Sequence record: OM632669.1 | Length of the DNA stretch: 64,000 bases | From: Escherichia phage BEU42 | Strand: one strand, 5' to 3' | Shown here: one piece after another, positions 1,088-18,319 of the stretch | Layout of the letters: each line of letters opens with the position of its first letter | How positions within the stretch are numbered: the first letter of the stretch is position 1 | The notes under the pieces: model-generated | Seen by the model: the letters and a program-made list of their open reading frames with translations, nothing else | What the model was told of the DNA's origin: nothing | The model's database searches: none | Position numbers and translations under genes: made by a program

Positions 1088-1916
1088 GTACATTGCAGTA
1101 GCAATTGCAGGGCTAATCATTGCTCTAAGTTTAACGAGCTGCTATGACCGAGTTGAACCAGGTAATGTAGGTATTATCGTTAACCGTCTCGGTGAAGATA
1201 AAGGCGTGGAAAATGAGGTTAAAGGTGTAGGCCGTTACTGGCTCACTTGGAATGAAGAACTTTATACATTCCCAACCTTTAAGCAGATGAAGACCTATGA
1301 TGGTCTGTTCTACTTCCAACTGTCTGATGGTACTCAGATAGGCCACCAGATGGCTATCAGCTATAAAGTGAACCCTACTAAGGTAACTAATATCTTCCAG
1401 ACGTATCGTAAGGGAGTTAATGAAATTACCGAGCAGGATTTACGCCAACGTATTGCTGATGTACTTAACAGACAGGGTAACCTGATTAACACTGATACAT
1501 TTATTGATGGTGGTAAATCTAAGCTACTAGATAGTGTCACTGACACAATCCGTAAAGAGATGGAACCAGTGGGGATTGATATTATTGCTATCTCCTGGAT
1601 TGGTGCTCCTGAATACCCTGATAACGTTAAACGTGCCATTAATGCCAAAGTAGAAGCTACTCAGAAAACTCTGCAACGTGAGCAAGAGATTCAACAACGT
1701 GTAGCTGAAGCTAATATGGAACGTGAACAAGCTAAGGGTGTAGCTGATGCTATTCTGATTAAAGCTAAAGCAGAGGCTGATGCTATTCGTTTACGTGGTG
1801 AAGCACTCACCGAGAATCCAAATGTAATGCAACTGGAAGCTATTAATAAGTGGAATGGTACATTACCTACCACAATGATTCCTGGGGCTACTACACCTTT
1901 CGTTAATGTGAAATAA
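1080..1916 (+). CDS. SPFH/band-7 (prohibitin/HflC-like) family lipoprotein
   Basis: N-terminal signal with lipobox-like LTSC. C-terminal coiled-coil segment (AKAEADAIRLRGEALTENPNVMQLEAINKWNGTLP) closely resembles the conserved stomatin/HflC C-terminus. 278 aa. Confidence 0.65.
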   Translation: MYKYIAVAIAGLIIALSLTSCYDRVEPGNVGIIVNRLGEDKGVENEVKGVGRYWLTWNEELYTFPTFKQMKTYDGLFYFQLSDGTQIGHQMAISYKVNPTKVTNIFQTYRKGVNEITEQDLRQRIADVLNRQGNLINTDTFIDGGKSKLLDSVTDTIRKEMEPVGIDIIAISWIGAPEYPDNVKRAINAKVEATQKTLQREQEIQQRVAEANMEREQAKGVADAILIKAKAEADAIRLRGEALTENPNVMQLEAINKWNGTLPTTMIPGATTPFVNVK

Positions 1917-1922
1917 CTAAGC

Positions 1923-1952
1923 AAACCCACCATTACGGTGGGTTTATTTTTT
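1923..1952 (+). terminator. Rho-independent terminator
   Basis: Hairpin aaacccacc-atta-cggtgggttt followed by a T-run, immediately after the SPFH stop. Confidence 0.65.
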
Positions 1953-1978
1953 GAAGTTATCTAACACTGGGTATTCCT

Positions 1979-2203
1979 ATGAAAGTAAATGTTTTACGTC
2001 GTAAGAAAGTTCCTTTCTTTCAAATCAATTGTGGTTCATGTTTTCAACACGATGATGACTACTATATGAAGTGTAGTTATCAATCTAAAGAACACTTCTA
2101 TGGTGTGAATTTACAAACAGGGCATCTGTTCACATTTGATAATAATGACTTTGTTTATCCTGTGACTTTAGAAGCATGTATTCCTGACCCACTTAATAAA
2201 TAG
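1979..2203 (+). CDS. hypothetical protein (74 aa, Cys-containing)
   Basis: ORF only; weak RBS. Confidence 0.4.
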   Translation: MKVNVLRRKKVPFFQINCGSCFQHDDDYYMKCSYQSKEHFYGVNLQTGHLFTFDNNDFVYPVTLEACIPDPLNK

Positions 2204-2204
2204 T

Positions 2205-2561
2205 ATGGCTCAAGAAAAGAATCGTCGTCAGACACTTATCGAACGTATTCAGGCCAGAATCAAATTACAGGACTTAGGCTATACCGTTAATGGTCAGCCT
2301 AGCCTCTGTCACATCTGGACTGGTTCACATTCAGGTAATGGACGCGGTGGGCAATATGGCAGGATTTCCGTGAATGGAGTTACCTCTGCAACTCACATTA
2401 TTGCCTATACCCATTATCATGGTTATATCCCCAATAAGATGCAAGTAGACCATCTCTGTAATAATCGTCTGTGCTGTAACCCTGAACATCTTGAATTGGT
2501 TACTCACCAAGAGAACCAGAGAAGAAGGGCTAAGCGTTCTAAATCTAAAGGAAATAAATAA
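2205..2561 (+). CDS. HNH endonuclease (free-standing homing-endonuclease-like)
   Basis: HNH signature with zinc ligands: DHLCNNRLCCNPEHLELVTHQEN, plus upstream CHIWTGS...G. 118 aa. Start codon uncertain (no obvious RBS). Confidence 0.65.
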   Translation: MAQEKNRRQTLIERIQARIKLQDLGYTVNGQPSLCHIWTGSHSGNGRGGQYGRISVNGVTSATHIIAYTHYHGYIPNKMQVDHLCNNRLCCNPEHLELVTHQENQRRRAKRSKSKGNK

Positions 2562-2732
2562 ATGATTAAAAAACTTATTTGTAAACTTATTGCAGCAATC
2601 TTAATTAGTATTATTGGTATTGCATGGGTAATTTCTACTCCAGATAACGTTATGCAACAAATTTATTATGCTGTATATACATCAACCTCTTTTGTTTGGG
2701 TTTATGTAATGTACCGTATTTGTAGCGACTAA
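2562..2732 (+). CDS. possible small membrane protein (56 aa)
   Basis: Untracked short ORF ATG 2562 to TAA 2730-2732, single hydrophobic helix (LIAAILISIIGIAWVIS); fills the gap between the HNH gene and the ATPase gene. Confidence 0.3.
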   Translation: MIKKLICKLIAAILISIIGIAWVISTPDNVMQQIYYAVYTSTSFVWVYVMYRICSD

Positions 2733-2761
2733 TACTTAATATAGCTTAACTGGAGAGTAAA

Positions 2762-3820
2762 ATGGCTAGTATTGATTCTATTGCCGTATGTAATCCACGG
2801 CAGGTACGTAAATTTGTTGAACACTGTATCCGTTCAGGATTGGTTCCATTTATCACTTCATCTCCTGGTATGGGTAAATCTGCAATTGTTCATCAGATTG
2901 CAGAAGACTTTGGCCTGAAACTGATTGACCATCGTCTGTCTACTTCAGCACCAGAAGACCTGTCAGGTCTGCCTCGTTTTAAAGAAAATGGTCGTGCTGA
3001 ATTTGCTCCATTTGACGAGCTATTCCCACTGGAAGGGGATACTGTACCTGAAGGATTTAATGGCTGGCTTCTCTTTCTCGATGAGTTTAACTCTGCTCGT
3101 AAAGAGATTCAGGCTGCTGCTTATAAATTGGTACTCGACCGTATGACTGGTCAGAAGAAGCTACATCCTTATGTAGCTATCGTATGTGCTGGTAACAAAG
3201 CAACTGACCGTGCCATTACTAATAACCTGTCTACAGCTATGCAATCACGTCTTATTCATCTGGAAATGGAGACTGATTTTGATGTCTTTATGGAAGATGT
3301 AGCTATCCCTAACAAATGGGATGAGCGTGTAATTGCATTCCTGAATGCTAACCCAAATAAACTGAATGATTTTGAACCAGACCATCAAGAGAAGACTTTC
3401 TGTTGTTCTCGTACATGGGAGTTCGTTAACAAGATTGTTTCCATTCTCCCACCGGGACCGATTGATAGTGAAATGACTCTGCTATTAGCAGGCACTATCA
3501 CCTCTGGTGTAGCAACATCATTCGTCCAGTTTACTCAGGTCTATAGCAACATGGTGTCTTTGAATGAGATTTTGGATAATCCTAAGAAAGCTCGTATGCC
3601 TGAAGACAATAACCTGTTGTGGGCTGTAGTCACTTCACTGATTAACAATACTGACGAAGATAATCATTCGAAAATCTTTGATTACGTTGAACGTATGCCA
3701 TTTACGTTCAAGGTTTTGTACTACCGTTCCGTAGGTAGTCTGGTTCCAGCTTTGGTTAAATTACCGAACTGGCGTGTTGCTGCAATCACATTATCTAAAT
3801 ACGTTCATGGTTCCAATTAA
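2762..3820 (+). CDS. AAA+ ATPase, MoxR/AAA_5-like
   Basis: Walker A SSPGMGKSA and Walker B LLFLDEFNSA; GGAGAG RBS; 352 aa. Sits directly upstream of a vWA-domain gene (N4 gp24-like by synteny). Confidence 0.7.
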   Translation: MASIDSIAVCNPRQVRKFVEHCIRSGLVPFITSSPGMGKSAIVHQIAEDFGLKLIDHRLSTSAPEDLSGLPRFKENGRAEFAPFDELFPLEGDTVPEGFNGWLLFLDEFNSARKEIQAAAYKLVLDRMTGQKKLHPYVAIVCAGNKATDRAITNNLSTAMQSRLIHLEMETDFDVFMEDVAIPNKWDERVIAFLNANPNKLNDFEPDHQEKTFCCSRTWEFVNKIVSILPPGPIDSEMTLLLAGTITSGVATSFVQFTQVYSNMVSLNEILDNPKKARMPEDNNLLWAVVTSLINNTDEDNHSKIFDYVERMPFTFKVLYYRSVGSLVPALVKLPNWRVAAITLSKYVHGSN

Positions 3821-3986
3821 CAAGAAAGGAGTTACAGACCTCCTGTATGTTGCTGGCTTTAACGGTGAAAAAATTACCGTATATGCCCCAAGTCTGGCTG
3901 CTGCTAAACAAAAGGCAGTTGAATACTTTCGTCCAAAGAAACGTGTAGCCCATACCATTTGGGTTCATCTCGCAGAGGAAAACTGA
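3807..3986 (+). CDS. possible small protein (59 aa)
   Basis: In-frame ATG 3807 inside track ORF 3774..3986; overlaps ATPase stop by 14 nt; no clear RBS. Otherwise the 167-nt gap before the vWA gene is non-coding. Confidence 0.25.
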   Translation: MVPINKKGVTDLLYVAGFNGEKITVYAPSLAAAKQKAVEYFRPKKRVAHTIWVHLAEEN

Positions 3987-3987
3987 T

Positions 3988-5130
3988 ATGTCCATGACAG
4001 ATGCTCAATTAACCCGTGAATATGACAGATGTCAGGCTAAAGCCTTTATGGGCAAAACTGCTGCATTCTTTGGTTCACTGTTATGTTCTCTGAAGTTCCG
4101 TTGGGTAAAAGATGGCTGTGATACAGCACAAACCGATGGTGAGCATCTCGAATGGAATCCTGATTGGTTTGAGAGTCTATTACCTGAATCTCGTGTAACA
4201 GTACTCATGCATGAACTATGGCATGTCGGCTTACTGCATTCTGTTCGTATGGGTTCTCGTGACCCAGAAGTATGGAATTATGCCTGTGATATTTATATCA
4301 ACAATCAGCTTATTCAGGATGGCTACAGCTTTATAGGAATCGAAAATTGCTGGAAAGACTCTAAGTATGCTGGTTGGGCTGAAGAACAAATCTATGATGA
4401 CCTCATGAGCAAACAGATACGTCCTCCTAAAGCATCAGGTGCTTTTGGGGCTGGCTCAGGTGGTGACATGAAACCTTCCACTTCGAAGGCTAGTCAGGTA
4501 AATATTGTCAATAATGTAGTAAGAGCCATGCACCAACAGAAACTATCTGGTGGTTCTTTGCCTGGGGTATTACCTGGAAAAATGGAAGAAGTTATTACTC
4601 AATTCCTGAAACCAGTAGTACCGTGGCAGGTCTTACTTGAACGCTTCTTCAATGACCTGCAAGAAACTTACTACTCATGGCAACGGCCTAATCGTAGATA
4701 CCCTGATATGTACCTACCATCTCCTATGGATGATGACGGTAGACTGGAACATCTGGCTTATTTCCTCGATACATCTGGCTCCATTAAACCTAAAGATGCT
4801 TTACGCTTTAGCTCTGAAGTGGCCTATGTAAAAGAGAAATACCAGCCTCAGAAGATGACTCTAGTTCAGTTCACTACAGAGATTGTAGATGAACAAGTCA
4901 TTGAAGATGGTGATAAGTTTACTGATGTCACTATCAAAGGACGGGGTGGTACTAGTCTGGTTCCTGTACGTGAGTGGATTATTAAGCATAAGCCTACTGC
5001 TGCCATTATCTTTACTGACTTAGAAGTCAGACCGATGGAGCCATTGCCATTTGACATTCCTGTCATATGGGTAGTTATTCGTAACCCTGGTGCACAAGTT
5101 CCATTTGGGAAAGTTATTAACATTACATGA
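3988..5130 (+). CDS. vWA-domain protein with N-terminal HExxH putative metallopeptidase-like domain
   Basis: MIDAS-type motif DTSGS (AYFLDTSGSIKPKD) and upstream MHELWHVGLLH; GAGGAAA RBS; 380 aa. Partner of the preceding MoxR-like ATPase (N4 gp25-like by synteny). Confidence 0.65.
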   Translation: MSMTDAQLTREYDRCQAKAFMGKTAAFFGSLLCSLKFRWVKDGCDTAQTDGEHLEWNPDWFESLLPESRVTVLMHELWHVGLLHSVRMGSRDPEVWNYACDIYINNQLIQDGYSFIGIENCWKDSKYAGWAEEQIYDDLMSKQIRPPKASGAFGAGSGGDMKPSTSKASQVNIVNNVVRAMHQQKLSGGSLPGVLPGKMEEVITQFLKPVVPWQVLLERFFNDLQETYYSWQRPNRRYPDMYLPSPMDDDGRLEHLAYFLDTSGSIKPKDALRFSSEVAYVKEKYQPQKMTLVQFTTEIVDEQVIEDGDKFTDVTIKGRGGTSLVPVREWIIKHKPTAAIIFTDLEVRPMEPLPFDIPVIWVVIRNPGAQVPFGKVINIT

Positions 5131-5136
5131 GGTTTT

Positions 5137-5643
5137 ATGGTTGTTAATGGAAAACTATTGTTAGGTGCTATACCCATTAAGGGCATGGTTAACAGTAAAC
5201 TCAGTTCAGGTGAGACTACATTTGGACTGGGAGAAGCTGGTTATGACATCCGTATTAAACAGGATGTTACCTTCTACCGATTTCTTGGTTTGATTCCCTG
5301 CATCAAGATTAAGGATGAAGGAAAGACCAAGTGGAAGTTTGGCACTTTCACATTAGCTTCTGCAATGGAACGTTTCAATGTACCTGCTGGCCTAGTGGGT
5401 ATTGTCCATGACAAATCTACATGGGCAAGGCGTACATTATCTGTATTTAATACCGTTATTGAACCAGGATGGTCAGGCTATCTGACTTTAGAACTGGTTT
5501 ATCACGGTCGTAAAAAACTTCATATCCCTGCTGGTTCAGGTATTGCTCAGGTCATCTTCCATGAGACAGTAGAGAATACTACCTACAATGGACGATACCA
5601 GAACCAGCCTAATCAACCTGTAGCTGCTAAGTCAGCTCGTTAA
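5137..5643 (+). CDS. dCTP deaminase / dUTPase-superfamily protein
   Basis: Motifs GEAGYDIRI and VIEPGWSGYLTLELVYHG...GIAQVIF resemble the Dcd/dUTPase-fold signatures; 168 aa. Confidence 0.55.
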   Translation: MVVNGKLLLGAIPIKGMVNSKLSSGETTFGLGEAGYDIRIKQDVTFYRFLGLIPCIKIKDEGKTKWKFGTFTLASAMERFNVPAGLVGIVHDKSTWARRTLSVFNTVIEPGWSGYLTLELVYHGRKKLHIPAGSGIAQVIFHETVENTTYNGRYQNQPNQPVAAKSAR

Positions 5644-5656
5644 TTAAGGAAATATC

Positions 5657-5857
5657 ATGTCTATCTTTACTACTAAGGTTAATGGTCAGAAAGTTACTGT
5701 TGTTGCTCGTAACGTAGCTTACGTTACTGAAAACAGTGAAGGCCGTGGTGTAATTACTTTTACTAACGGTGATTCCATTGATACCCAGGTAGGTTATGAC
5801 TCTATCCGTCGTAACGTAGCTAAAGCACTTGATGGTGCTAAAGACATCGCAGAGTAA
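5657..5857 (+). CDS. hypothetical protein (66 aa)
   Basis: ORF with AAGGA RBS; followed by terminator hairpins. Confidence 0.45.
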   Translation: MSIFTTKVNGQKVTVVARNVAYVTENSEGRGVITFTNGDSIDTQVGYDSIRRNVAKALDGAKDIAE

Positions 5858-5932
5858 GGTGTTTACAGTAATGGGGCTATATAGTAGCCCCATTTATGGA
5901 AATTCCTTTCTCCATTGCTTAGTCCCAACTAT

Positions 5933-5956
5933 GCCCACTTTATGTGGGCTTTTTTA
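5933..5956 (+). terminator. Rho-independent terminator
   Basis: Hairpin gcccac-tttatg-tgggc followed by TTTTTT; a second hairpin (ggggctatatagtagcccc) lies at about 5872-5890. Confidence 0.55.
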
Positions 5957-5970
5957 ATTAGAGACTATGT

Positions 5971-6213
5971 ATGAGCAAACTAGGTATACACGTTTACATA
6001 GATGAAGCCGAGAAGATATACCCCTATACATTATTTAGTTCCAGTGATTTACTTCAGATGAAGGTAAACTCCATCATCGTAAACTACTGGTATAACGATA
6101 AGAATTGGGATTACTGGGCTGCACGACAGAAGAGTAAGAACAAGAAAGATATATTCAAAAGCAAATCAACTCCACATATGTTTCCTTGGTATCACAGAAA
6201 CCGGAGATATTGA
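5971..6213 (+). CDS. hypothetical protein (80 aa)
   Basis: ORF; stop overlaps the next start (TGATG). Confidence 0.4.
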   Translation: MSKLGIHVYIDEAEKIYPYTLFSSSDLLQMKVNSIIVNYWYNDKNWDYWAARQKSKNKKDIFKSKSTPHMFPWYHRNRRY

Positions 6214-6674
6214 TGACAAGAATACCATTTTTAAAACCTAGAAAACGAACACCAAAGCTGTATCAAAAGACCTCAGAAGACGGTTTAGCCTTGAACCAGA
6301 AAGCTATTAAGGCCGTTAGTACACTGGTTCAAGGTAAACAGGATGCTGTTGCTTTACGTCTTGTTGTTGAGCAAATCTTAGTTGCTCTGACACTGGCTCA
6401 AGTAGCTAAACAAGAAGGTAAACAAGAAACCTGTAAAACAGCATTAGGTGCTTTGTACTGGTTGTATAAAGACCTTGCTGACAACTTTGAAATGTCTATG
6501 GATAAGTGGCAGGGCATTTCTTGTGTACTTGCTCTTAGAGAAGGACAGGAATTACTGTCTACTCTACCAAAAGCAGAATTTAAACTAGCCTACACTGGAG
6601 CACATAAGATTGTTCTTGGTTCCAGTAAGGACATCTTTAACCACCTCAAGCTATTCAAGGCTTTCTATGATTAA
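6213..6674 (+). CDS. hypothetical protein (about 153 aa)
   Basis: Track ORF 6186 uses TTG; ATG 6213 has GGAG 6 nt upstream and is stop/start coupled to the previous gene. 3' end overlaps the thyX start by 8 nt. Confidence 0.45.
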   Translation: MTRIPFLKPRKRTPKLYQKTSEDGLALNQKAIKAVSTLVQGKQDAVALRLVVEQILVALTLAQVAKQEGKQETCKTALGALYWLYKDLADNFEMSMDKWQGISCVLALREGQELLSTLPKAEFKLAYTGAHKIVLGSSKDIFNHLKLFKAFYD

Positions 6675-8282: not shown

Positions 8283-10373
8283 GTGAAACGAAATTATCTC
8301 GCCATTATTGCCCTGTCAGTAGACAGTCGTAACCTCACCTTATGGCAACCAGATGGTTCTACTATGGTCATCCCCCAAGGGGATGCCCGTGTACCACGTA
8401 TTGTTGCTGAAGCAAAAGAAAAGAATCTTACCCCAGGTAAGATTATCGAAGTGGATGTCACTATCGAAGCTCAGATTCGTCAGGAGTTTCTGGACGCTGA
8501 ACGTGATACAGGTGGCTTTGTTAAATTCTTCCGTATTACTAAGAAGAGGCTACAAGAGTTCTTCTTAGGGGAAGAGGAAGAACAAGTCCCTTATGTATCA
8601 CCTGTAGAGTTAGGTGCTAAACCCACTGCTTTCAATGCTTTTATTGCTAATGCTGTAGGCAAAACTCTTGCTGTACAACATGCATCATTAAAAGCACCTG
8701 AACCAGAAATGACAGTTACTCATGAGCGTTTTTACGGTAACTATGCTGTATGGATTACAGATGTAGACCCACGGAATCATCGTATTGAGGTTATTCATGT
8801 TATCCGTGAAATCTCAGGAAGAACCAGTGAATATGTCAATAACCTGCTGGCTCAACCAACCCCATTCAAAGTATTTGATTGGCTCACAGAGACGCAGGCT
8901 AAAGAGTTTGTAAGACGTCTGAATAACACTCAGGGTGTTATCTCTGTCTATAACAAACTGGAAGACGGTATTCCTGCTAAGGTTGCTGTAAAGGCCACAA
9001 AGCCAACCAATAAGGAAAAGCTGGAAGCTGCATCAACTAAGCTGAAAGCTATGGGTGCTGTCGCTACTGATGCTTATGAGTTTCATACTGACTTGAATGA
9101 GAATGAAGAGACTATTGTAGCTGTAGTGAATGATAAGGTGGTTCCTGATGTTCAGAACCTACACCGCCACATCCGTCAATCTGCAAACCTGAAAGACTAT
9201 AAAGGCTTTACTAAGTTCCTTGAACGTCTGTCTACTGTAATTGATAAACGTCGTCACTCTGTTGAAGACCTGATGAAGTTTATGGAAAAAGGTGACCTGC
9301 CAATTGCAGATGATGGCTCCATTGTTATCTTCAAACGTCTGGAAAGCAAAGACAATCCTGAACATCTCAAAGACGTAATGGATGATGTATTTGTTGATTG
9401 CCATTCTAGGAAGATTGAGCAATGCGTTGGTATGCGTGTAATGGTTAAAGAAAACCTTGTAGACCAGAACCGTCGTAAAGACTGTTCTCATGGTTTGCAC
9501 GTAGCTTCTCTGCAATACATTCGTAATTTCTCAGGCAACGTAACCATTATTGGTAAAGTTGCTCCAGAGGATGTATTTGCAGTACCAGAATACGATGTTA
9601 CTAAGATGCGTGTATCTGCTTATCACATCATTACCAAGCTACCTGATGCTATTCGTGACCATGTTAATAATGGCAATCCAATCTCCACCATTGAGGGTGG
9701 TACGGAAATCCTGAACATGGTTCTCAGTGGTAATCACCCTGAACCTTCCCGTCAGGTACTGGTTGGTGGTCATTATGGAACCAATCTGACTTATTCAGAA
9801 CTCACCCGTAATTATCTGGATGATGAGGAAGACATCGTTATTCCAGATGAACCAGTAATTAAGAAAACTGCCTTGAATATGGAAGAGAGCTTTACGGCAA
9901 CTAATCCTAAAGCTGAACCAGTGAAGGCAACGGATGTTAAACCTATTAAGAAGACTAAGATGGAAATTCTTAAAGACCTTTGGAACCAGTTCCTGAAAGC
10001 AGAGACTTCTAATGAAGCTATTACACTGGCTGATGAAATCATTGCTGCTAAGGGCAAATGTAAGAAGTCATGGGCTTCTTTAGGCTTCAGTGGTGACATG
10101 GTTCAGAAACTGATTGATGCTCGTGCTAATAAACCTAAGCCAGAAAAAGTAGTCAAACAGGATAAAACTGTTGCACCTAAGAAAACTACAATCACTCGTA
10201 GTCGGAATGCTGATGTTATTCGTAGCTATCTGAATGACAAAGGTATGTCTGATTACTGTAAAGCTCATGCCATTCACGATGTGAAACGTGCTGCTAAGAA
10301 ATCTTATGCTGCACTGGGTCTGACTCCTGAAGAATGCAGCCAAATTGATAAACTGAAGCATCATTTGAAGTAA
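8283..10373 (+). CDS. large hypothetical protein (696 aa), GTG start
   Basis: Long ORF with GGAG 6 nt upstream of GTG 8283. Lys-rich C-terminal third. No GHKL or other motif recognised; an rIIA-like role is only a synteny guess. Confidence 0.5.
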   Translation: MKRNYLAIIALSVDSRNLTLWQPDGSTMVIPQGDARVPRIVAEAKEKNLTPGKIIEVDVTIEAQIRQEFLDAERDTGGFVKFFRITKKRLQEFFLGEEEEQVPYVSPVELGAKPTAFNAFIANAVGKTLAVQHASLKAPEPEMTVTHERFYGNYAVWITDVDPRNHRIEVIHVIREISGRTSEYVNNLLAQPTPFKVFDWLTETQAKEFVRRLNNTQGVISVYNKLEDGIPAKVAVKATKPTNKEKLEAASTKLKAMGAVATDAYEFHTDLNENEETIVAVVNDKVVPDVQNLHRHIRQSANLKDYKGFTKFLERLSTVIDKRRHSVEDLMKFMEKGDLPIADDGSIVIFKRLESKDNPEHLKDVMDDVFVDCHSRKIEQCVGMRVMVKENLVDQNRRKDCSHGLHVASLQYIRNFSGNVTIIGKVAPEDVFAVPEYDVTKMRVSAYHIITKLPDAIRDHVNNGNPISTIEGGTEILNMVLSGNHPEPSRQVLVGGHYGTNLTYSELTRNYLDDEEDIVIPDEPVIKKTALNMEESFTATNPKAEPVKATDVKPIKKTKMEILKDLWNQFLKAETSNEAITLADEIIAAKGKCKKSWASLGFSGDMVQKLIDARANKPKPEKVVKQDKTVAPKKTTITRSRNADVIRSYLNDKGMSDYCKAHAIHDVKRAAKKSYAALGLTPEECSQIDKLKHHLK

Positions 10374-12592: not shown

Positions 12593-13120
12593 ATGCAACT
12601 GGGTGAAAAACAAATCCGTGAAATGACTAATAGTAGTGAACTAGTTCAGGAATTATTCTTAGCCGAGTTACGTCGGCTAGATAAAGTGCTGGATAGTATC
12701 ATTACACGTAATGGGGAAACATTCGCTGTATACAACTCAACAGGGTTTCTGTATTTAGGGGAGTTCTATTCGAGTTCCCGTTCATCACAACAACCCCCTT
12801 CTGGTCATCGTCTGGCTCTGGCTAATCACCTACTGGATGATATGCGGGAGTATCTGGAACAAGCAGGTAAACTTCTGCTAGAAGTCCATATGGTGAATCA
12901 GATGGTCTTTCGTCTGGTTCAGGGCTGTAAGACTTATCAAGACGTTCGTGATGCATTGCCAGAATGCCTCATTGCTATGGATAAACAGGGTCATCTGAAA
13001 TCCTTACAGAGAACCAGAAAGGCAGCATTTACTCTGGATAATGATGCTATGGCTCTCCGTCAGTATGAGAAAATCTTGCCGATTATCGAATACTATGCGG
13101 GAACCCATCTTATCTTTTGA
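12593..13120 (+). CDS. hypothetical protein (175 aa)
   Basis: ORF with AAGGAG RBS. Confidence 0.5.
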   Translation: MQLGEKQIREMTNSSELVQELFLAELRRLDKVLDSIITRNGETFAVYNSTGFLYLGEFYSSSRSSQQPPSGHRLALANHLLDDMREYLEQAGKLLLEVHMVNQMVFRLVQGCKTYQDVRDALPECLIAMDKQGHLKSLQRTRKAAFTLDNDAMALRQYEKILPIIEYYAGTHLIF

Positions 13121-13127
13121 GGTCTGT

Positions 13128-15092
13128 ATGCGTCACATTACATTCAACAATGAGGGTATCTACCCTATTGCTATCCTTACTACAACGTTACGTAAGGATG
13201 ATATTGTCAAAGCATACATGGAACCCTGGGATGTAGATAAAGATTCAGTAATGATTCTTGAACTTCATACAGCCCCAGGGAAAAAGAAAACTCCTGCTAA
13301 AGAGATGCAGGAGTTTATTACCCAAGAATTAGTGCCAGCATTCGAAGCAGCACAAACTCAGTATATCATCTGTGGTGATTCTGAATATTACAAACAGCTA
13401 ACCAAACAAGGTAAAGCTGATGCCAATATTGGCTATGTAATGGATTGTGCTTATGGGAACCAGAAAGTTATTTACGTTCCCAATTACAGACAAATCTTTT
13501 ATGACCCGGATAAGGTAAAGACTAAGATTGCTTTATCCATGCAGGCTCTGATTGATTATGTCTCTGGTTCTTATGTTGAGCCAGGAACTAAGATTATCCA
13601 CTATGCTGATTATCCATTAACTCCAGAAGCTATATCTAAGTGGTTAGATAAGTTACTGGAGATGAATGTTCCATTAGCAGTAGATATAGAAACCTTCAGT
13701 CTGAAGCATTATGACTGTGGTATAGGCACTATTACATTCTGCTGGAACAAGCATGAAGGGATAGCATTCCCTGTGGATTATGAACCAATTGAGGGGGCTA
13801 CTGAAGCTCCTTATGGTAGACAAGTTCACAACATGCTTGTTCGTTCTATGCTCAGAGACTTTTTTATTAAGTATCTGAACAGGCAGATGTATCACAATAT
13901 TGCCTTTGACGTATATGCACTCATTTACCAGTTATTTATGACAGACCTTCTGGATACGGAAGGGTTGTTGCATGGCATGAGTATCATGCTAAGAAACTGG
14001 GATTGCACTAAGTTAATTACCTATCTGGCTACTAACTCTTGTGCGGGTAATAAGCTAAGTCTTAAAGACCAGGCTCAGGAATATGCTGGTAACTATGCTC
14101 AAGAAGAAATCAATGACATTACCAGAATCCCATTAGCAGAGTTGTTGGAATACAACTTAGTGGATGGATTATGTACCTGGTATGTCTATGAAAAGCATTG
14201 GGATACTCTGGTTAATGACCAACAGTTAGATGTTTATACAAACATCTTCAAACCTGCATGTGAAGATATTATTCAAATGCAGTTAACTGGTATGCCTATC
14301 AATATGAAGACAGTATTGGAGGTAGAAGAGGCATTAACCCAAGACTATAACAATGCGTTAAAAACAATTGCTGACAGTAAAGTAATCAAAGATTTCACCC
14401 GTCTTCTTAATGAAGAATGGGTAGAAAAACAGAACCAGATTCTGAAGAAGAAACGAGTGACTTTAGCTGATGCTAAAGAACAGTTTAACCCAAACTCAGG
14501 TATTCAATTACAGAAGCTACTTTTTGAGTTTCTGGAGTTACCTGTACTTGGTTTGACTGCAAGTAAACTACCTGCTACTGGCAGTGGCATACTCAAGTCT
14601 TTGAAGAACCATACCCAAGATACCAGTATTCTGGAAATTCTTGATGCTCTGATTGATTACAAAGCTGTAGATAAAATTCTGACAGCATTTATTCCAGCAT
14701 TAAAAAATGCCAGACAAGGACCAGATGGTTGGCATTATCTCTTTGGTAATCTGAACTTAGGTGGGACTGTATCAGGCCGCCTATCCAGTAGTGAACCAAA
14801 CCTACAGAACCTACCTTCTGGTTCCAGATATGCCAAGATGATTAAAAAATGCTTTGAGGCTCCTCCTGGATGGATATTCTGTGGGCTAGACTTTGCTTCT
14901 CTCGAAGACCGTATATCTGCTTTAACAACCAAAGACCCTAACAAGCTGAAGGTGTACATGGGTGTGACTGTTTATACAGTTACTATAGAAGGAGTTGACC
15001 ATCATATCCGAGATGATGATACAATCGTTTATGATGGTAAAACTTATACCGGTGAGGAGTTCTATGACGCTTTTACCCGTGGCCTTCTATGA
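13128..15092 (+). CDS. DNA polymerase (family A), N-terminal portion: 3'-5' exonuclease domain through polymerase motif A
   Basis: ATG 13128 with GAGG RBS (in frame with track ORF 13041). Exo I motif LAVDIETFSL; polymerase motif A GLDFASLEDRI. ORF stops at 15092, before motifs B and C. Confidence 0.75.
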   Translation: MRHITFNNEGIYPIAILTTTLRKDDIVKAYMEPWDVDKDSVMILELHTAPGKKKTPAKEMQEFITQELVPAFEAAQTQYIICGDSEYYKQLTKQGKADANIGYVMDCAYGNQKVIYVPNYRQIFYDPDKVKTKIALSMQALIDYVSGSYVEPGTKIIHYADYPLTPEAISKWLDKLLEMNVPLAVDIETFSLKHYDCGIGTITFCWNKHEGIAFPVDYEPIEGATEAPYGRQVHNMLVRSMLRDFFIKYLNRQMYHNIAFDVYALIYQLFMTDLLDTEGLLHGMSIMLRNWDCTKLITYLATNSCAGNKLSLKDQAQEYAGNYAQEEINDITRIPLAELLEYNLVDGLCTWYVYEKHWDTLVNDQQLDVYTNIFKPACEDIIQMQLTGMPINMKTVLEVEEALTQDYNNALKTIADSKVIKDFTRLLNEEWVEKQNQILKKKRVTLADAKEQFNPNSGIQLQKLLFEFLELPVLGLTASKLPATGSGILKSLKNHTQDTSILEILDALIDYKAVDKILTAFIPALKNARQGPDGWHYLFGNLNLGGTVSGRLSSSEPNLQNLPSGSRYAKMIKKCFEAPPGWIFCGLDFASLEDRISALTTKDPNKLKVYMGVTVYTVTIEGVDHHIRDDDTIVYDGKTYTGEEFYDAFTRGLL

Positions 15093-15609
15093 ACAACGGT
15101 ATAAGATTTCCGATGAAGGTTTCATCTTAAATCTTGCAAACAATCAACCCCTAAAACCGACTCTCAATCCTAATGGATACCTTAAGGTTGGATTAGCTAA
15201 TGGCGATGGTACACATCACCAAGAGCTACTTCATATTCTGGTAGCTAAACACTTCATCCCTAATCCTTATGGCTATGAACAGGTAAACCATAAAGACGGT
15301 AATAAACTGCATTGTCATAAGGATAATCTGGAATGGTGCTCTGCTACTCAGAATGTTGAACATGCACTTAAAACAAAGCTACGTCCTGGTTACATGTCTG
15401 CTGACGATAAAGAGAAGTATCTCTTTGAGGTGCTGGCAGGTAAGCAAGTTAAAGACATTGCTTTTGAAATAGGTAGGCGTCCTGAAACTTTGCATAAGAT
15501 GCTCAGAACTACTGCTGACCGACTTGGTGTTCGAAATGAGTGGGATGATGTTATGAGGAGAAATAGAAAAGATGTTGCTTTACGACAGCTTGCCAAAATC
15601 AACTCATGA
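15064..15609 (+). CDS. HNH homing endonuclease inserted in the DNA polymerase gene
   Basis: HNH_3-like sequence (NPNGYLKVGL...VNHKDGNKLHCHKDNLEWCSATQN). Strong RBS GAGGAG 6 nt upstream of ATG 15064. Reading frame differs from both polymerase fragments. Confidence 0.7.
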   Translation: MTLLPVAFYEQRYKISDEGFILNLANNQPLKPTLNPNGYLKVGLANGDGTHHQELLHILVAKHFIPNPYGYEQVNHKDGNKLHCHKDNLEWCSATQNVEHALKTKLRPGYMSADDKEKYLFEVLAGKQVKDIAFEIGRRPETLHKMLRTTADRLGVRNEWDDVMRRNRKDVALRQLAKINS

Positions 15610-16402
15610 CTTCACTGGCAAGAAAATTGACAACGTAGTCAAAGCTGGGAGTTCATCAGGTTACGATGGGCATAGTCTTCGTGCATATGCTTACTTCGGT
15701 GAGATGATGCCTGACATTGAAGATACGGTAGAGTCTGTTAATTCTATTCAGGAGAAGTACAAAGCATATCGTCAGGATTCTAAAGCACCTACCTTTGCTC
15801 TTACCTATCAGGGCACATACATCACTTTGATGAAGAACTGTGGTTTCTCTGAACAGAAAGCTCGAATGGTTGAAGAACGTTATCACACACTTTATAAGGT
15901 AAGTGATGACTGGGTTCAGGCTAAACTAGACCAAGCTGCAAAAGATGGTTATGTAACCGTAGCATTTGGCCTGAGAGTCAGAACCCCCTTACTTCAACAA
16001 GTTATCCGTGGAACCAGTAAAACTCCTTATGAAGCTGAAGCTGAAGGACGTACTGCTGGTAATGCATTAGGCCAAAGTTGGTGTCTTCTGAATAACCGTG
16101 CTGGTTCAGAGTTCATGCGTATGGTGCGGAATAGTAAGCATCGTCTTGATATTCGTCCAAGTACCCATATCCATGATGCTCAGTATTTCCTTATCCGTGA
16201 TGATATGGATGTTGTGATATATACCAATACTCATTTGGTGAAAGCAGTACAATGGCAAGACCATCCTGATATTGCTCATCCAGATGTTCATTTGGGTGGG
16301 GAACTCTCCTTATTCTACCCAACGTGGGCTAACGAGATTGAGATTCCAAACTACGCTACGCCCGAACAAGTCCATGAAGCAATCCAAAAGGCATTTAAAT
16401 GA
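15572..16402 (+). CDS. DNA polymerase (family A), C-terminal portion: motifs B and C
   Basis: Post-motif-A helix-like GYDGHSLRAYAYFGE, motif B KAPTFALTYQGTY, motif C THIHDAQYF. N-terminal boundary (own start versus spliced exon) undetermined. Confidence 0.7.
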   Translation: MLLYDSLPKSTHDFTGKKIDNVVKAGSSSGYDGHSLRAYAYFGEMMPDIEDTVESVNSIQEKYKAYRQDSKAPTFALTYQGTYITLMKNCGFSEQKARMVEERYHTLYKVSDDWVQAKLDQAAKDGYVTVAFGLRVRTPLLQQVIRGTSKTPYEAEAEGRTAGNALGQSWCLLNNRAGSEFMRMVRNSKHRLDIRPSTHIHDAQYFLIRDDMDVVIYTNTHLVKAVQWQDHPDIAHPDVHLGGELSLFYPTWANEIEIPNYATPEQVHEAIQKAFK

Positions 16403-16737
16403 CCAAACAAATTGAAGAGAAAAAGCATCACTGGTTAGTAGCAGCTCAACTGACTTTTGTTATTCCTGATAACAAAGATGGTCAGGAAGGTGCTGTTATT
16501 GTTCAGAACACTATGTTGCTTACTGAAGAGAAACAGGTAACTTTCCGTGACCTGGGACGTGCTCAGTCTGCTCTGTTTCAGAATCTGAATGACCGTTTTG
16601 GTCAAGTGGTAGATGTACGGGATATTGTATTCCTGAACGTCAGCTACCTGGGTCATATGAGTCAGCCTGACTTTCAGCAAAATCTGGTAACTAAAGATAC
16701 TGCTGCGAAGAAAGCTAAACTGAAAGCTGTGGAGTAA
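16399..16737 (+). CDS. hypothetical protein (112 aa)
   Basis: ORF; ATGA overlap with polymerase stop. Confidence 0.5.
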   Translation: MTKQIEEKKHHWLVAAQLTFVIPDNKDGQEGAVIVQNTMLLTEEKQVTFRDLGRAQSALFQNLNDRFGQVVDVRDIVFLNVSYLGHMSQPDFQQNLVTKDTAAKKAKLKAVE

Positions 16738-16739
16738 TC

Positions 16740-17348
16740 ATGTCTGAAAAACTATCAGGTGGTTTTAATAACTACTATCTGGTTCAGGTAACCAACCCTC
16801 AACGTATGGAACAGCCTCCATATCAGGCCGAGTGTGAGGATATTATCCAAGCACTAAATATGACCTTTGATGAAGGGTGTCTGTTCAAGGCATTGTGGCG
16901 TAATGCTGCTGCTCGTTTAGGTAACGGTAAACCAGGTAACAATGCCGTTTATGATGCAGAGAAGATGGTTCATTATGCTAACCGTATTTTTATTAAAGAA
17001 TCCGGTGGGCAGAAAAAAGAAGCAGAAGAACCAGTTTCTGAGGCTCTGAAGAAGGGTGAAGAGATTCATATGTCTCTGTCTGAATTATTCACCCTGTTAA
17101 CTGGTGAAGCAGCAGAAGGTGAAGTAATGAGCCTTGCTGGTTGGCATACTCACGTACCAAACCGTTTGGGTGTTATGCCTATTGCTGTTGCAATGAGCAA
17201 AGCAGAACAAATTGATGTAGTACGTGCCGATGGAACGACTATTACTCATGTATTTCCTCATGAGATTGACTGGTCTGATAAGATTGCCCCCTTTGCTCGA
17301 ATCACTGCATGGCGTTTCAGTAACCCATCTAAGGTCGCTTCTAAATGA
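16740..17348 (+). CDS. hypothetical protein (202 aa)
   Basis: ORF with GGAG RBS. Confidence 0.5.
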   Translation: MSEKLSGGFNNYYLVQVTNPQRMEQPPYQAECEDIIQALNMTFDEGCLFKALWRNAAARLGNGKPGNNAVYDAEKMVHYANRIFIKESGGQKKEAEEPVSEALKKGEEIHMSLSELFTLLTGEAAEGEVMSLAGWHTHVPNRLGVMPIAVAMSKAEQIDVVRADGTTITHVFPHEIDWSDKIAPFARITAWRFSNPSKVASK

Positions 17349-18319
17349 AAATCACGAACAATCATGACGTGTCCTTGCCATTAGCTGTCTGGCTTTTGCA
17401 TGACGAGTATGATTACGTGAAGGATAAAAAGTATCTTTCTGTGACTACCTTGCTTAAGCCAATTAAGCACATTGTCATGAAGCATCGTGTAGACCTTTCT
17501 GTAGAAAGTATGGACATCATGGATTTGGTGTCCACTTCTATGGGTACGGGCTTACATGATTCTATTGAGAAGGCATGGCATAACGGACACCACAATGCAT
17601 TACGCAAGTTAGGGTATCCTGAGCGTGTCGTTCAGAATGTTGTCATCAATCCTACCCCTGAGCAGATTGCATCAAATCCAAACTTAATTCCTGTATGGAT
17701 AGAACAACGAGCAACTAAAAAGATTGCTGGTTGGACTATTGGGGGCAAGTTCGACATCGTTACTGAAGGTCTTCTTCAGGATGTAAAATCCACCTCCACT
17801 TACACATGGGTAAAGGGTGGACGTGATGAAGAACATAAACTTCAGGGGTCAATGTATCGTTGGTTACATGACGACAAGATTACCGAAGATGTGATTCGTA
17901 TTAACTACATCTTCACTGACTGGATGAAAGCACTAGCTACATCTCAAGAAAACTACCCAAAGCACCGTGTGCTGCATAAAGACATTCCATTGATGTCTTA
18001 TGAAGCGACTGAAGAATGGATTAAAGCCAAGCTGGCTCTCATTGATAAGTACTGGGATGCTCCTGAAAACGAGATTCCAGAATGTACTGATGAAGAGTTA
18101 TGGCGTTCTGACCCAGTGTTTAAATACTTTGCTGACCCAGAGAAGGCAAAGCAACCTGGTGCTCGTTCTACCAAAAACTTCCCTACTCTCTTTGAGGCTC
18201 GGAAGTTCATGGCAGAGAAAGGCAAAGGCACTATTCTTCATGTTCCTGGTGAACCTAAACGATGCAACTATTGCTCAATTTTTAACATCTGCGAACAAAG
18301 AAAGAGATATTTCCCATGA
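17345..18319 (+). CDS. PD-(D/E)XK-type nuclease with C-terminal cysteine cluster (Cas4/RecB-like; candidate phage 5'-3' exonuclease)
   Basis: Candidate catalytic segment GKFDIVTEGLLQDVK and C-terminal C-x2-C-x5-C (KRCNYCSIFNIC) plus an upstream Cys (IPECTDEE); 324 aa; ATGA coupling on both sides. Confidence 0.45.
   Translation: MKITNNHDVSLPLAVWLLHDEYDYVKDKKYLSVTTLLKPIKHIVMKHRVDLSVESMDIMDLVSTSMGTGLHDSIEKAWHNGHHNALRKLGYPERVVQNVVINPTPEQIASNPNLIPVWIEQRATKKIAGWTIGGKFDIVTEGLLQDVKSTSTYTWVKGGRDEEHKLQGSMYRWLHDDKITEDVIRINYIFTDWMKALATSQENYPKHRVLHKDIPLMSYEATEEWIKAKLALIDKYWDAPENEIPECTDEELWRSDPVFKYFADPEKAKQPGARSTKNFPTLFEARKFMAEKGKGTILHVPGEPKRCNYCSIFNICEQRKRYFP

Follow-up and report, generated by a model that had tools for sequence, protein, structure and literature searches.

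What does the gene between the gp41 and primase genes of N4-like phages encode, and might its product be the 5'-3' exonuclease for which phage N4 itself codes? We examined this question in a 64,000-nucleotide (nt) stretch of DNA from Escherichia phage BEU42 (sequence record OM632669.1), an N4-type coliphage (Enquatrovirus); this whole stretch is called the window below. The gene is the homologue of N4 gp42, and we file its product as a predicted phage exonuclease for recombination, of the iron-sulfur (Fe-S) RecB/Cas4-like kind, which stands alone and varies in the topology of its ligands. Taken as a whole, the explanation that we consider probable is that gp42 is a Cas4-like Fe-S nuclease, which would carry out 5'-3' resection of DNA ends for recombination-dependent replication.

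The predicted protein has 324 amino acids (aa) and a mass of 37.6 kDa. Five records named 'Escherichia phage BEU' match the gene at 100% identity and positions 26343-27317 of phage N4 (gp42) match its DNA at 97.4%, while 322 of the 324 aa are shared with the N4 protein. Since 20 of the 25 nucleotide differences from N4 fall at third codon positions and just two amino acids change, this is a coding gene under purifying selection. Its start codon overlaps the stop codon of the upstream open reading frame (ORF; ATGA at 17345-17348) and its own stop codon overlaps the ATG of the 715-aa primase ORF (ATGA at 18316-18319), so that the gp41, gp42 and gp43 genes look translationally coupled. A tblastn search found the gene in 476 phage records, and the organism names of these records begin with 37 different words; almost all of those listed have the typical genome size of N4-like phages. 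A full-length homologue with 43% identity was also present at 228196-229134 of Enterobacter phage SonariX (PQ898399, 248.7 kb), a 249-kb jumbo phage that lies beyond the usual 70-78 kb of N4-like genomes.

Nuclease core and fold

Profile searches placed the protein in PHROG 2139, labelled 'exonuclease' (1e-147), with a second match to the Cas4-like PHROG 1706 (1.9e-9). The Pfam family PDDEXK_1 (PF12705) matched 31 of 73 homologues at E<=0.01 (best 5.2e-7), and several members of a second, shorter clade of homologues (20-27% identity to gp42) have a precomputed PF12705 match. The hidden Markov model searches suggested in the original prediction, which had proposed a Cas4-like nuclease from the sequence alone, were therefore positive for both PHROGs, fell just below threshold for PDDEXK_1 in the gp42 homologue itself, and gave no match to the Pfam Cas4 family (DUF83/PF01930). 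A search of NCBIfam with the same protein returned nothing relevant.

For structure prediction, an alignment of 30 sequences was used as the basis of an AlphaFold2 model. This model (mean predicted local distance difference test 89.7, predicted template modelling score 0.79) had the three-dimensional RecB/Cas4-like PD-(D/E)XK fold, so that a Cas4-like fold was predicted with high confidence, as anticipated. In Foldseek the best match in the PDB was Cas4 SSO0001 (4IC1, E 3.6e-7), and the next ones were RecE, a phage exonuclease of the YqaJ type and EXO5 from human; we take these leading matches to be mostly members of the RecB-like family that carry an Fe-S cluster. When a viral structure library was searched, the best matches beyond the N4-like phages were Cas4-like proteins from viruses of archaea and from uncultured caudoviruses. 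SSO0001 was also reached directly by sequence (E 6.2e-4) with a profile that combined the N4-like and second clades (A4), and it was the sole PDB sequence match of this profile. In the resulting alignment motifs I-III, the QhxxY motif and the C-terminal cysteine triad are all in register. Sequence and model together support the assignment of gp42 to the RecB/Cas4 branch within the PD-(D/E)XK superfamily, as a predicted nuclease that stands alone, and the Cas4/AddB-type fold of the original prediction is borne out by the two PHROGs, the PDDEXK_1 matches among homologues and the Foldseek match to SSO0001.

The residues expected at the active site of such a nuclease are strongly conserved. In motif I, the aligned homologues have G67 and H71 without exception and E75 in 97% of cases; in motif II both G134 and D137 are invariant. 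D137 is invariant in both clades, and together with D146-x-K148 of motif III it is retained throughout the 145 and 119 homologues of the two clades. The predicted core strands carry motif II on residues 130-135/138-140 and motif III on residues 143-150. In the QhxxY motif of the RecB family, Q167 is invariant and Y171 is found in 99%. The core had been described beforehand as 'D...E-x-K-like', which is roughly right, the conserved catalytic residues being D137 and D146-V-K148, with D-x-K instead of E-x-K. The protein does contain two literal E-x-K strings, E163-H-K165 and E303-P-K305. These were rejected as catalytic motifs because they are missing from the conserved-residue lists, save for K305, which is listed for close homologues only.

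Four invariant cysteines and a proposed displaced ligand

The gp42 homologue contains four cysteines in total (C247, C307, C310 and C316), which form the pattern C-x59-C-x2-C-x5-C with a triad that stops 8 residues short of the C-terminus. The C-terminal C-x2-C-x5-C with one additional upstream cysteine was thus correctly recognized from the sequence. This pattern by itself is weak evidence, since the bare C..C.....C arrangement is not rare in the window: it occurs three further times in long stop-free stretches, and the one such occurrence that was examined, near 22611, is out of frame with the gene there. What gives the pattern significance is its conservation among homologues. All four cysteines are invariant in 30 close homologues (56-83% identity); among 145 cluster representatives with 37-53% identity each of the four is present in 144-145 of 145, the lone exception being a gap; and in the second clade they are found in 119 of 119 sequences, where the spacing of the triad is mostly C-x3-C-x5-C. 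Many homologues have no cysteines besides these four. The conservation on which the original prediction depended therefore extends over about 260 homologues, with identities as low as 22-26%.

The arrangement is not in every respect that of Cas4 and AddB, as had been proposed. The triad aligns with the cluster ligands of SSO0001, while the upstream cysteine does not occupy the canonical N-terminal position. Specifically, the Cas4 segment IYVTDLVRCPRR, which bears the N-terminal Fe-S cysteine, aligns with L31-S-V-T-T-L-L-K-P39-I-K-H of gp42, and in the A4-SSO0001 alignment the position of the canonical first ligand is taken by Pro39. Lys38 was considered as the residue replacing this cysteine and was ruled out, the alignment placing Pro39 there. 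Across 263 homologues the Pro39 column holds P, S, T, A, G or N and in none of them Cys. Of the layout of Cas4 proper, gp42 has the C-terminal C-x2-C-x5-C and lacks the N-terminal cysteine. Behind the catalytic core and helix 219-236 stands C247 and, because it is absolutely conserved and no alternative cysteine exists, we infer that it is the relocated fourth ligand of the cluster. The four invariant cysteines probably hold an Fe-S cluster, either [4Fe-4S] or possibly [2Fe-2S], in a structural role.

A Cas4-like PD-(D/E)XK nuclease might also use four such cysteines for a structural Cys4 zinc site with no Fe-S cluster. Sequence cannot tell Zn(Cys)4 from Fe-S, and the first ligand is off its canonical position; in addition, the spacing differs between the clades (C-x2-C versus C-x3-C), so that there is some geometric tolerance. 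The residue-for-residue alignment of the triad with the Fe-S ligands of SSO0001 and the presence of several Fe-S nucleases among the best structural neighbours nevertheless make a zinc site unlikely. The same conclusion is suggested by the 4-Cys Fe-S module found in all Cas4-family members that were examined by Hudaiberdiev et al. (PMC5704561).

If gp42 does hold an Fe-S cluster, the displacement of its first ligand has consequences for the architecture of the enzyme, as 59 residues are enclosed between C247 and the triad. This insert has no counterpart in SSO0001, where the whole region from QLQIY to the triad spans ∼27 residues, and W253, K260, Y261, N278, F279, A285 and G295 are conserved within it. 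A likeness of the insert region to NDUFS4 was not significant (E 0.4) and was discarded. A further insertion at about residues 100-133 is found in the N4-like members and is missing in the second clade and in a Pelagibacter phage homologue. We tentatively propose, as a possibility that is rather less likely than its opposite, that the PHROG 2139 enzymes form a distinct Fe-S RecB/Cas4-like subfamily in which the first ligand has moved behind the core and the cluster clamps the 59-aa mini-domain. Enzymes of the gp42 type occur in N4-like phages and, at larger distances, in a Pelagibacter phage, in a virus with a Methanomicrobiales host on record and in many metagenomic contigs. The mini-domain could serve as a lid on the channel for the DNA end, or as a docking site for a single-stranded DNA-binding protein (SSB) or an annealing protein. 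If this proposal is true, the structural job of the cluster differs from the 'iron staple' of AddB, Dna2 and Cas4, and recombination-dependent replication of the phage is tied to Fe-S assembly by the host. The relocated ligand would constitute a small natural experiment on the role of the cluster in nucleases of the Cas4/AddB/Dna2 type.

A probable role in replication and recombination

Upstream of the gp42 homologue lie gp41, gp40 and the DNA polymerase gene, and downstream follows a series of genes for DNA transactions (Table 1). An exonuclease gene and an annealing gene are thereby found in proximity, the Sak4-like gp44 gene lying 2.2 kb downstream in the same gene block. The gp42-45 genes are reported to be common to N4-like phages of roseobacters and pseudomonads (PMC2784036, PMC11934525, PMC7845610).

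Table 1. Coordinates of the gp42 homologue, its motifs and the genes downstream of it, in window positions
Feature	Position	Strand	Remarks
N4 gp42 homologue gene	17345..18319	+	ATG start, 324 codons + stop
N-terminal segment S32-V-T-T-L-L-K-P39	17438..17461	+	aligned with Cas4 'YVTDLVRC'
Motif I helix: G67, H71, E75	17543..17569	+	aligned with SSO0001 'LGDILHLGLE'
Motif II: G134-K-F-D137, putative metal-binding Asp	17744..17755	+	aligned with SSO0001 'GRAD'
Motif III: D146-V-K148, putative (D/E)xK catalytic motif	17780..17788	+	aligned with SSO0001 'E-I-K'
RecB-family QhxxY motif: Q167-G-S-M-Y171	17843..17857	+	aligned with SSO0001 'QLQIY'
C247, in conserved P-x-C-T-D-E-E-L-W context	18083..18085	+	in 145/145 and 119/119 homologues
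Insert, residues 248-306 (59 aa), C247 to triad	18086..18262	+	predicted beta-beta-alpha-beta mini-domain
Cys triad C307-x2-C310-x5-C316	18263..18292	+	aligned with SSO0001 'C-KYC-IFSVIC'
gp43-like primase, DUF3987 + PriCT_1 domains	18316..20463	+	primase/helicase-like
gp44-like Sak4-type single-stranded DNA annealing protein	20522..21277	+	AAA_24; PHROG 124; putative recombination partner
gp45-like single-stranded DNA-binding protein	21323..22120	+	
gp46-like RuvC-like Holliday junction resolvase	22120..22677	+	PHROG 159, 5.5e-40

Distant relatives of gp42 were found in comparable company. In Caudoviricetes sp. vir555 (BK063671; Methanomicrobiales host on record) the PHROG 2139 exonuclease gene overlaps the start of an Erf-like annealing gene (3707-5318), and in two 60-kb metagenomic contigs (L007 and L008; in L007 at 1372-3268) the homologue lies 14 nt upstream of an AAA_24/Sak4-like gene. 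Because the neighbour is Erf-like in vir555 and AAA_24/Sak4-like in L007, one exonuclease family partners with non-homologous annealing proteins. An exonuclease gene beside non-homologous annealing proteins is the mark of two-component recombination systems in phages. That exonucleases pair with Sak4 was noted earlier in PMC3483164, which cites Lopes et al. 2010.

These data are consistent with the following mechanism. The first cluster ligand would have shifted to C247 from the N-terminal segment, where Pro39 now stands, and the cluster would clamp the beta-beta-alpha-beta insert and the C-terminus onto the core, instead of stapling the N- and C-termini together. With Mg2+ bound at D137/D146/K148, gp42 would degrade the 5'-ended strand at DNA ends or breaks in the 5'-3' direction. 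The SSB gp45 would bind the 3' single-stranded tails that this leaves, and the Sak4-like gp44 would anneal them, which could lead to annealing of terminal repeats, formation of concatemers and recombination-dependent replication, while the RuvC-like gp46 would resolve branched products and junctions. The 5'-3' polarity in this scheme is one that we infer by analogy with Cas4, AddB, Dna2 and EXO5 and from the report of an N4-coded 5'-3' exonuclease.

Guinta, Lindberg and Rothman-Denes reportedly purified a phage-coded 5'-3' exonuclease from N4-infected cells in 1986 and characterized it. An N4-coded enzyme of this kind is referred to in PMC8994998 (citing Guinta, Lindberg and Rothman-Denes, J Biol Chem 1986; 261: 10736). 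Within positions 1-45,025 of N4, gp42 is the sole protein labelled exonuclease, the other nuclease labels there being those of gp22 (small endonuclease) and gp25 (HNH endonuclease), and gp38, gp40, gp41 and gp47, examined as further candidates from the replication module, are without a nuclease signature. As gp42 carries the only exonuclease label in this part of N4 and the N4 DNA polymerase has no 5'-3' exonuclease domain (PMC2784036), the enzyme of 1986 has its best candidate in gp42, and the identity of the two is plausible. The RefSeq label 'exonuclease', which stands beside other PHROG-style names, probably stems from computational re-annotation and not from experiment. The 'gp42' of the CRISPRi-ART preprint belongs to T4 and has no bearing on this protein. 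If confirmed, the assignment would provide a molecular identity and a fold for an enzyme that was described biochemically in 1986 and has no ORF assignment in the literature that we found.

Instead of resecting ends, gp42 might be a fork nuclease of the Dna2/EXO5 type, acting on single-stranded DNA (ssDNA) to remove 5' flaps or RNA primers together with the gp37 or gp43 helicase. According to Guinta et al. in Virology in 1986, N4 replication reportedly uses the 5'-3' exonuclease of host Pol I and ligase, and primers could then be removed by these host enzymes. The coupling of the gene to primase/helicase-like gp43, its place in one block with the DNA polymerase gene and the missing 5'-3' exonuclease domain of the N4 polymerase (PMC2784036) would all suit a function at the fork, but the annealing-protein linkage is seen again in unrelated viruses without such a replication module. 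We therefore regard fork processing in place of resection as improbable, and the two roles can coexist. That gp42 is a counter-defence 'viral Cas4', manipulating spacer acquisition by the CRISPR of the host, as has been described for Cas4-like proteins of Campylobacter phage, or degrading host DNA, seems very improbable, even though the phage Cas4-like PF12705 proteins include a Campylobacter phage case (PMC5704561) and PHROG 1706 is labelled 'CRISPR/Cas system associated', because the place of the gene in the replication/recombination module is fixed across N4-like phages of many hosts (37 first words of organism names, and a match over 80% or more of the query in 475 of 476 cases), and also in view of the missing Pfam Cas4 match and the partnership with annealing genes in distant viruses. 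Likewise, no tie to a CRISPR-cas adaptation module was seen, the gene lying between gp41 and the primase gene in the replication/recombination module, and no cas genes are annotated within positions 1-45,025 of N4.

Several points weigh against gp42 as an end-resecting Fe-S exonuclease. In the GenBank record of N4 as deposited, gp42 has no name and nothing is called an exonuclease, so that the exonuclease gene is not assigned to ORF42. In the gp42 homologue PDDEXK_1 scores 20.6 bits (E 4.7e-4), under the gathering cut-off of 22 bits, which is a borderline miss of the sequence model and not a structural failure; and neither the single sequence nor a profile restricted to N4-like members (A2) gave a meaningful PDB sequence match. 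Two of the four distant genomic contexts have no recognizable annealing protein beside the gene. The four cysteines could bind zinc in place of an Fe-S cluster. Cas4, EXO5 and Dna2, the closest structural relatives, are nucleases of ssDNA ends, and gp42 may therefore need a helicase, unlike lambda Exo, which acts on duplex ends. Finally, work on Pcal_0546 reportedly showed that some Cas4 proteins have both polarities.

Neighbouring loci, annotation and known systems

Several further features were seen near the gene. The upstream gp41 homologue (16740-17348, 202 aa) is called '3'-phosphatase 5'-polynucleotide kinase' in some records. Only its residues 6-81 match, to the C-terminal part of PHROG 7063, and there is no Pfam match; the kinase label looks over-transferred. 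Further upstream, the DNA polymerase gene (N4 gp39 homologue, 13041-16402) is interrupted by a 702-nt insert (14957-15658), which takes the place of 7 nt of N4 and contains the ORF of an HNH/NUMOD4 homing endonuclease (14995..15609). In the record of Escherichia phage AlfredRasser the polymerase is annotated as a two-piece join. The insert has two readings, a self-splicing intron or a split gene, and Rfam intron families gave no match to it even at E<=1. Downstream of the recombination module, four transfer RNA (tRNA) genes at 23466-24141 match the annotated tRNA cluster of AlfredRasser.

Two observations concern the window as a whole. At the junction between positions 8283 and 8284 the entire rIIA gene of N4 (15460-17985, 2526 nt) is exactly missing, and rIIB follows with a GTG start. 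This junction is contiguous only in the records BEU44 and BEU51. In BEU5, BEU13 and BEU14 the sequence just past the junction sits at position 2527 and is preceded by a 2526-nt segment, which is the length of rIIA. An assembly permutation or rearrangement looks more likely than a biological deletion. Since positions 60802-64000 match N4 3447-6645 and position 1 matches N4 7177, the source record is a circular permutation with respect to the N4 reference, and the ends of the N4 genome fall within the window.

Different records give the gp42 gene different labels, namely 'hypothetical protein', 'UvrD/Rep family helicase' or 'exonuclease'. Its orthologue in AlfredRasser (MZ501049; L002 6001-6975) is annotated 'UvrD / Rep family helicase', which is a mis-annotation because the protein has no helicase domain, as found in the Pfam search of the gp42 homologue. 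Cas4-like nuclease domains are often fused to UvrD helicases (PMC5704561), and the label probably originates from such fusions. The gene itself, its PD-(D/E)XK nature and the name 'exonuclease' are already known from RefSeq, UniProt/UniRef names, PHROGs and several genome papers. In the literature that we searched, coverage of which was incomplete, there was no statement on the Cas4-like Fe-S nature of gp42 or on the relocation of its first ligand.

Our analysis thus allows an annotation cleanup of this gene and, if the assignment is true, provides a Schitoviridae core gene with a probable Fe-S cofactor. It overturns nothing in the present understanding: that phage recombination modules contain Cas4-like exonucleases is well known, and gp42 is largely ordinary apart from the unusual place of its first cysteine.

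How gp42 relates to known systems can be seen in comparison with Cas4 SSO0001 of Sulfolobus solfataricus (4IC1; DUF83), with which motifs I, II and III, QhxxY and the cysteine triad are shared. The phage protein is longer (324 aa versus ∼200 aa for SSO0001) and is not CRISPR-associated; it has D-x-K in motif III where Cas4 has E-x-K, and Pro39 where Cas4 has its N-terminal Fe-S cysteine, along with the new invariant C247 before the 59-aa insert. A similar relation holds for AddB/AdnAB, Dna2 and EXO5, with which gp42 shares the PD-(D/E)XK core and the Cys-x2-Cys-x5-Cys module. These enzymes have roles in the resection or processing of 5' strands, are fused to or partnered with helicases, and carry their first cysteine N-terminally, so that the 'iron staple' joins the N- and C-termini of the nuclease domain. 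In contrast, gp42 is predicted to stand alone, with both ends of the putative staple C-terminal to the core.

With lambda Exo/Red-beta, RecE/RecT and the YqaJ family, gp42 has in common the linkage to a gene for single-strand annealing, although its structural likeness to these exonucleases is weaker than that to Cas4. We know of no cysteine cluster in lambda Exo, RecE or the YqaJ-family exonucleases. The partner differs as well, as gp42 is found with a Sak4-type protein (RecA-like core), or with Erf in vir555, where the other systems have Red-beta or RecT. The phage-encoded PF12705 Cas4-like proteins, such as the mycobacteriophage 'Cas4 family exonuclease' and that of a Campylobacter phage, are likewise non-CRISPR proteins near PDDEXK_1 (PMC5704561); the gp42 homologues match this family weakly. 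From the Cas4-like proteins of PHROG 1706, finally, gp42 is set apart by its membership in a separate family, PHROG 2139.

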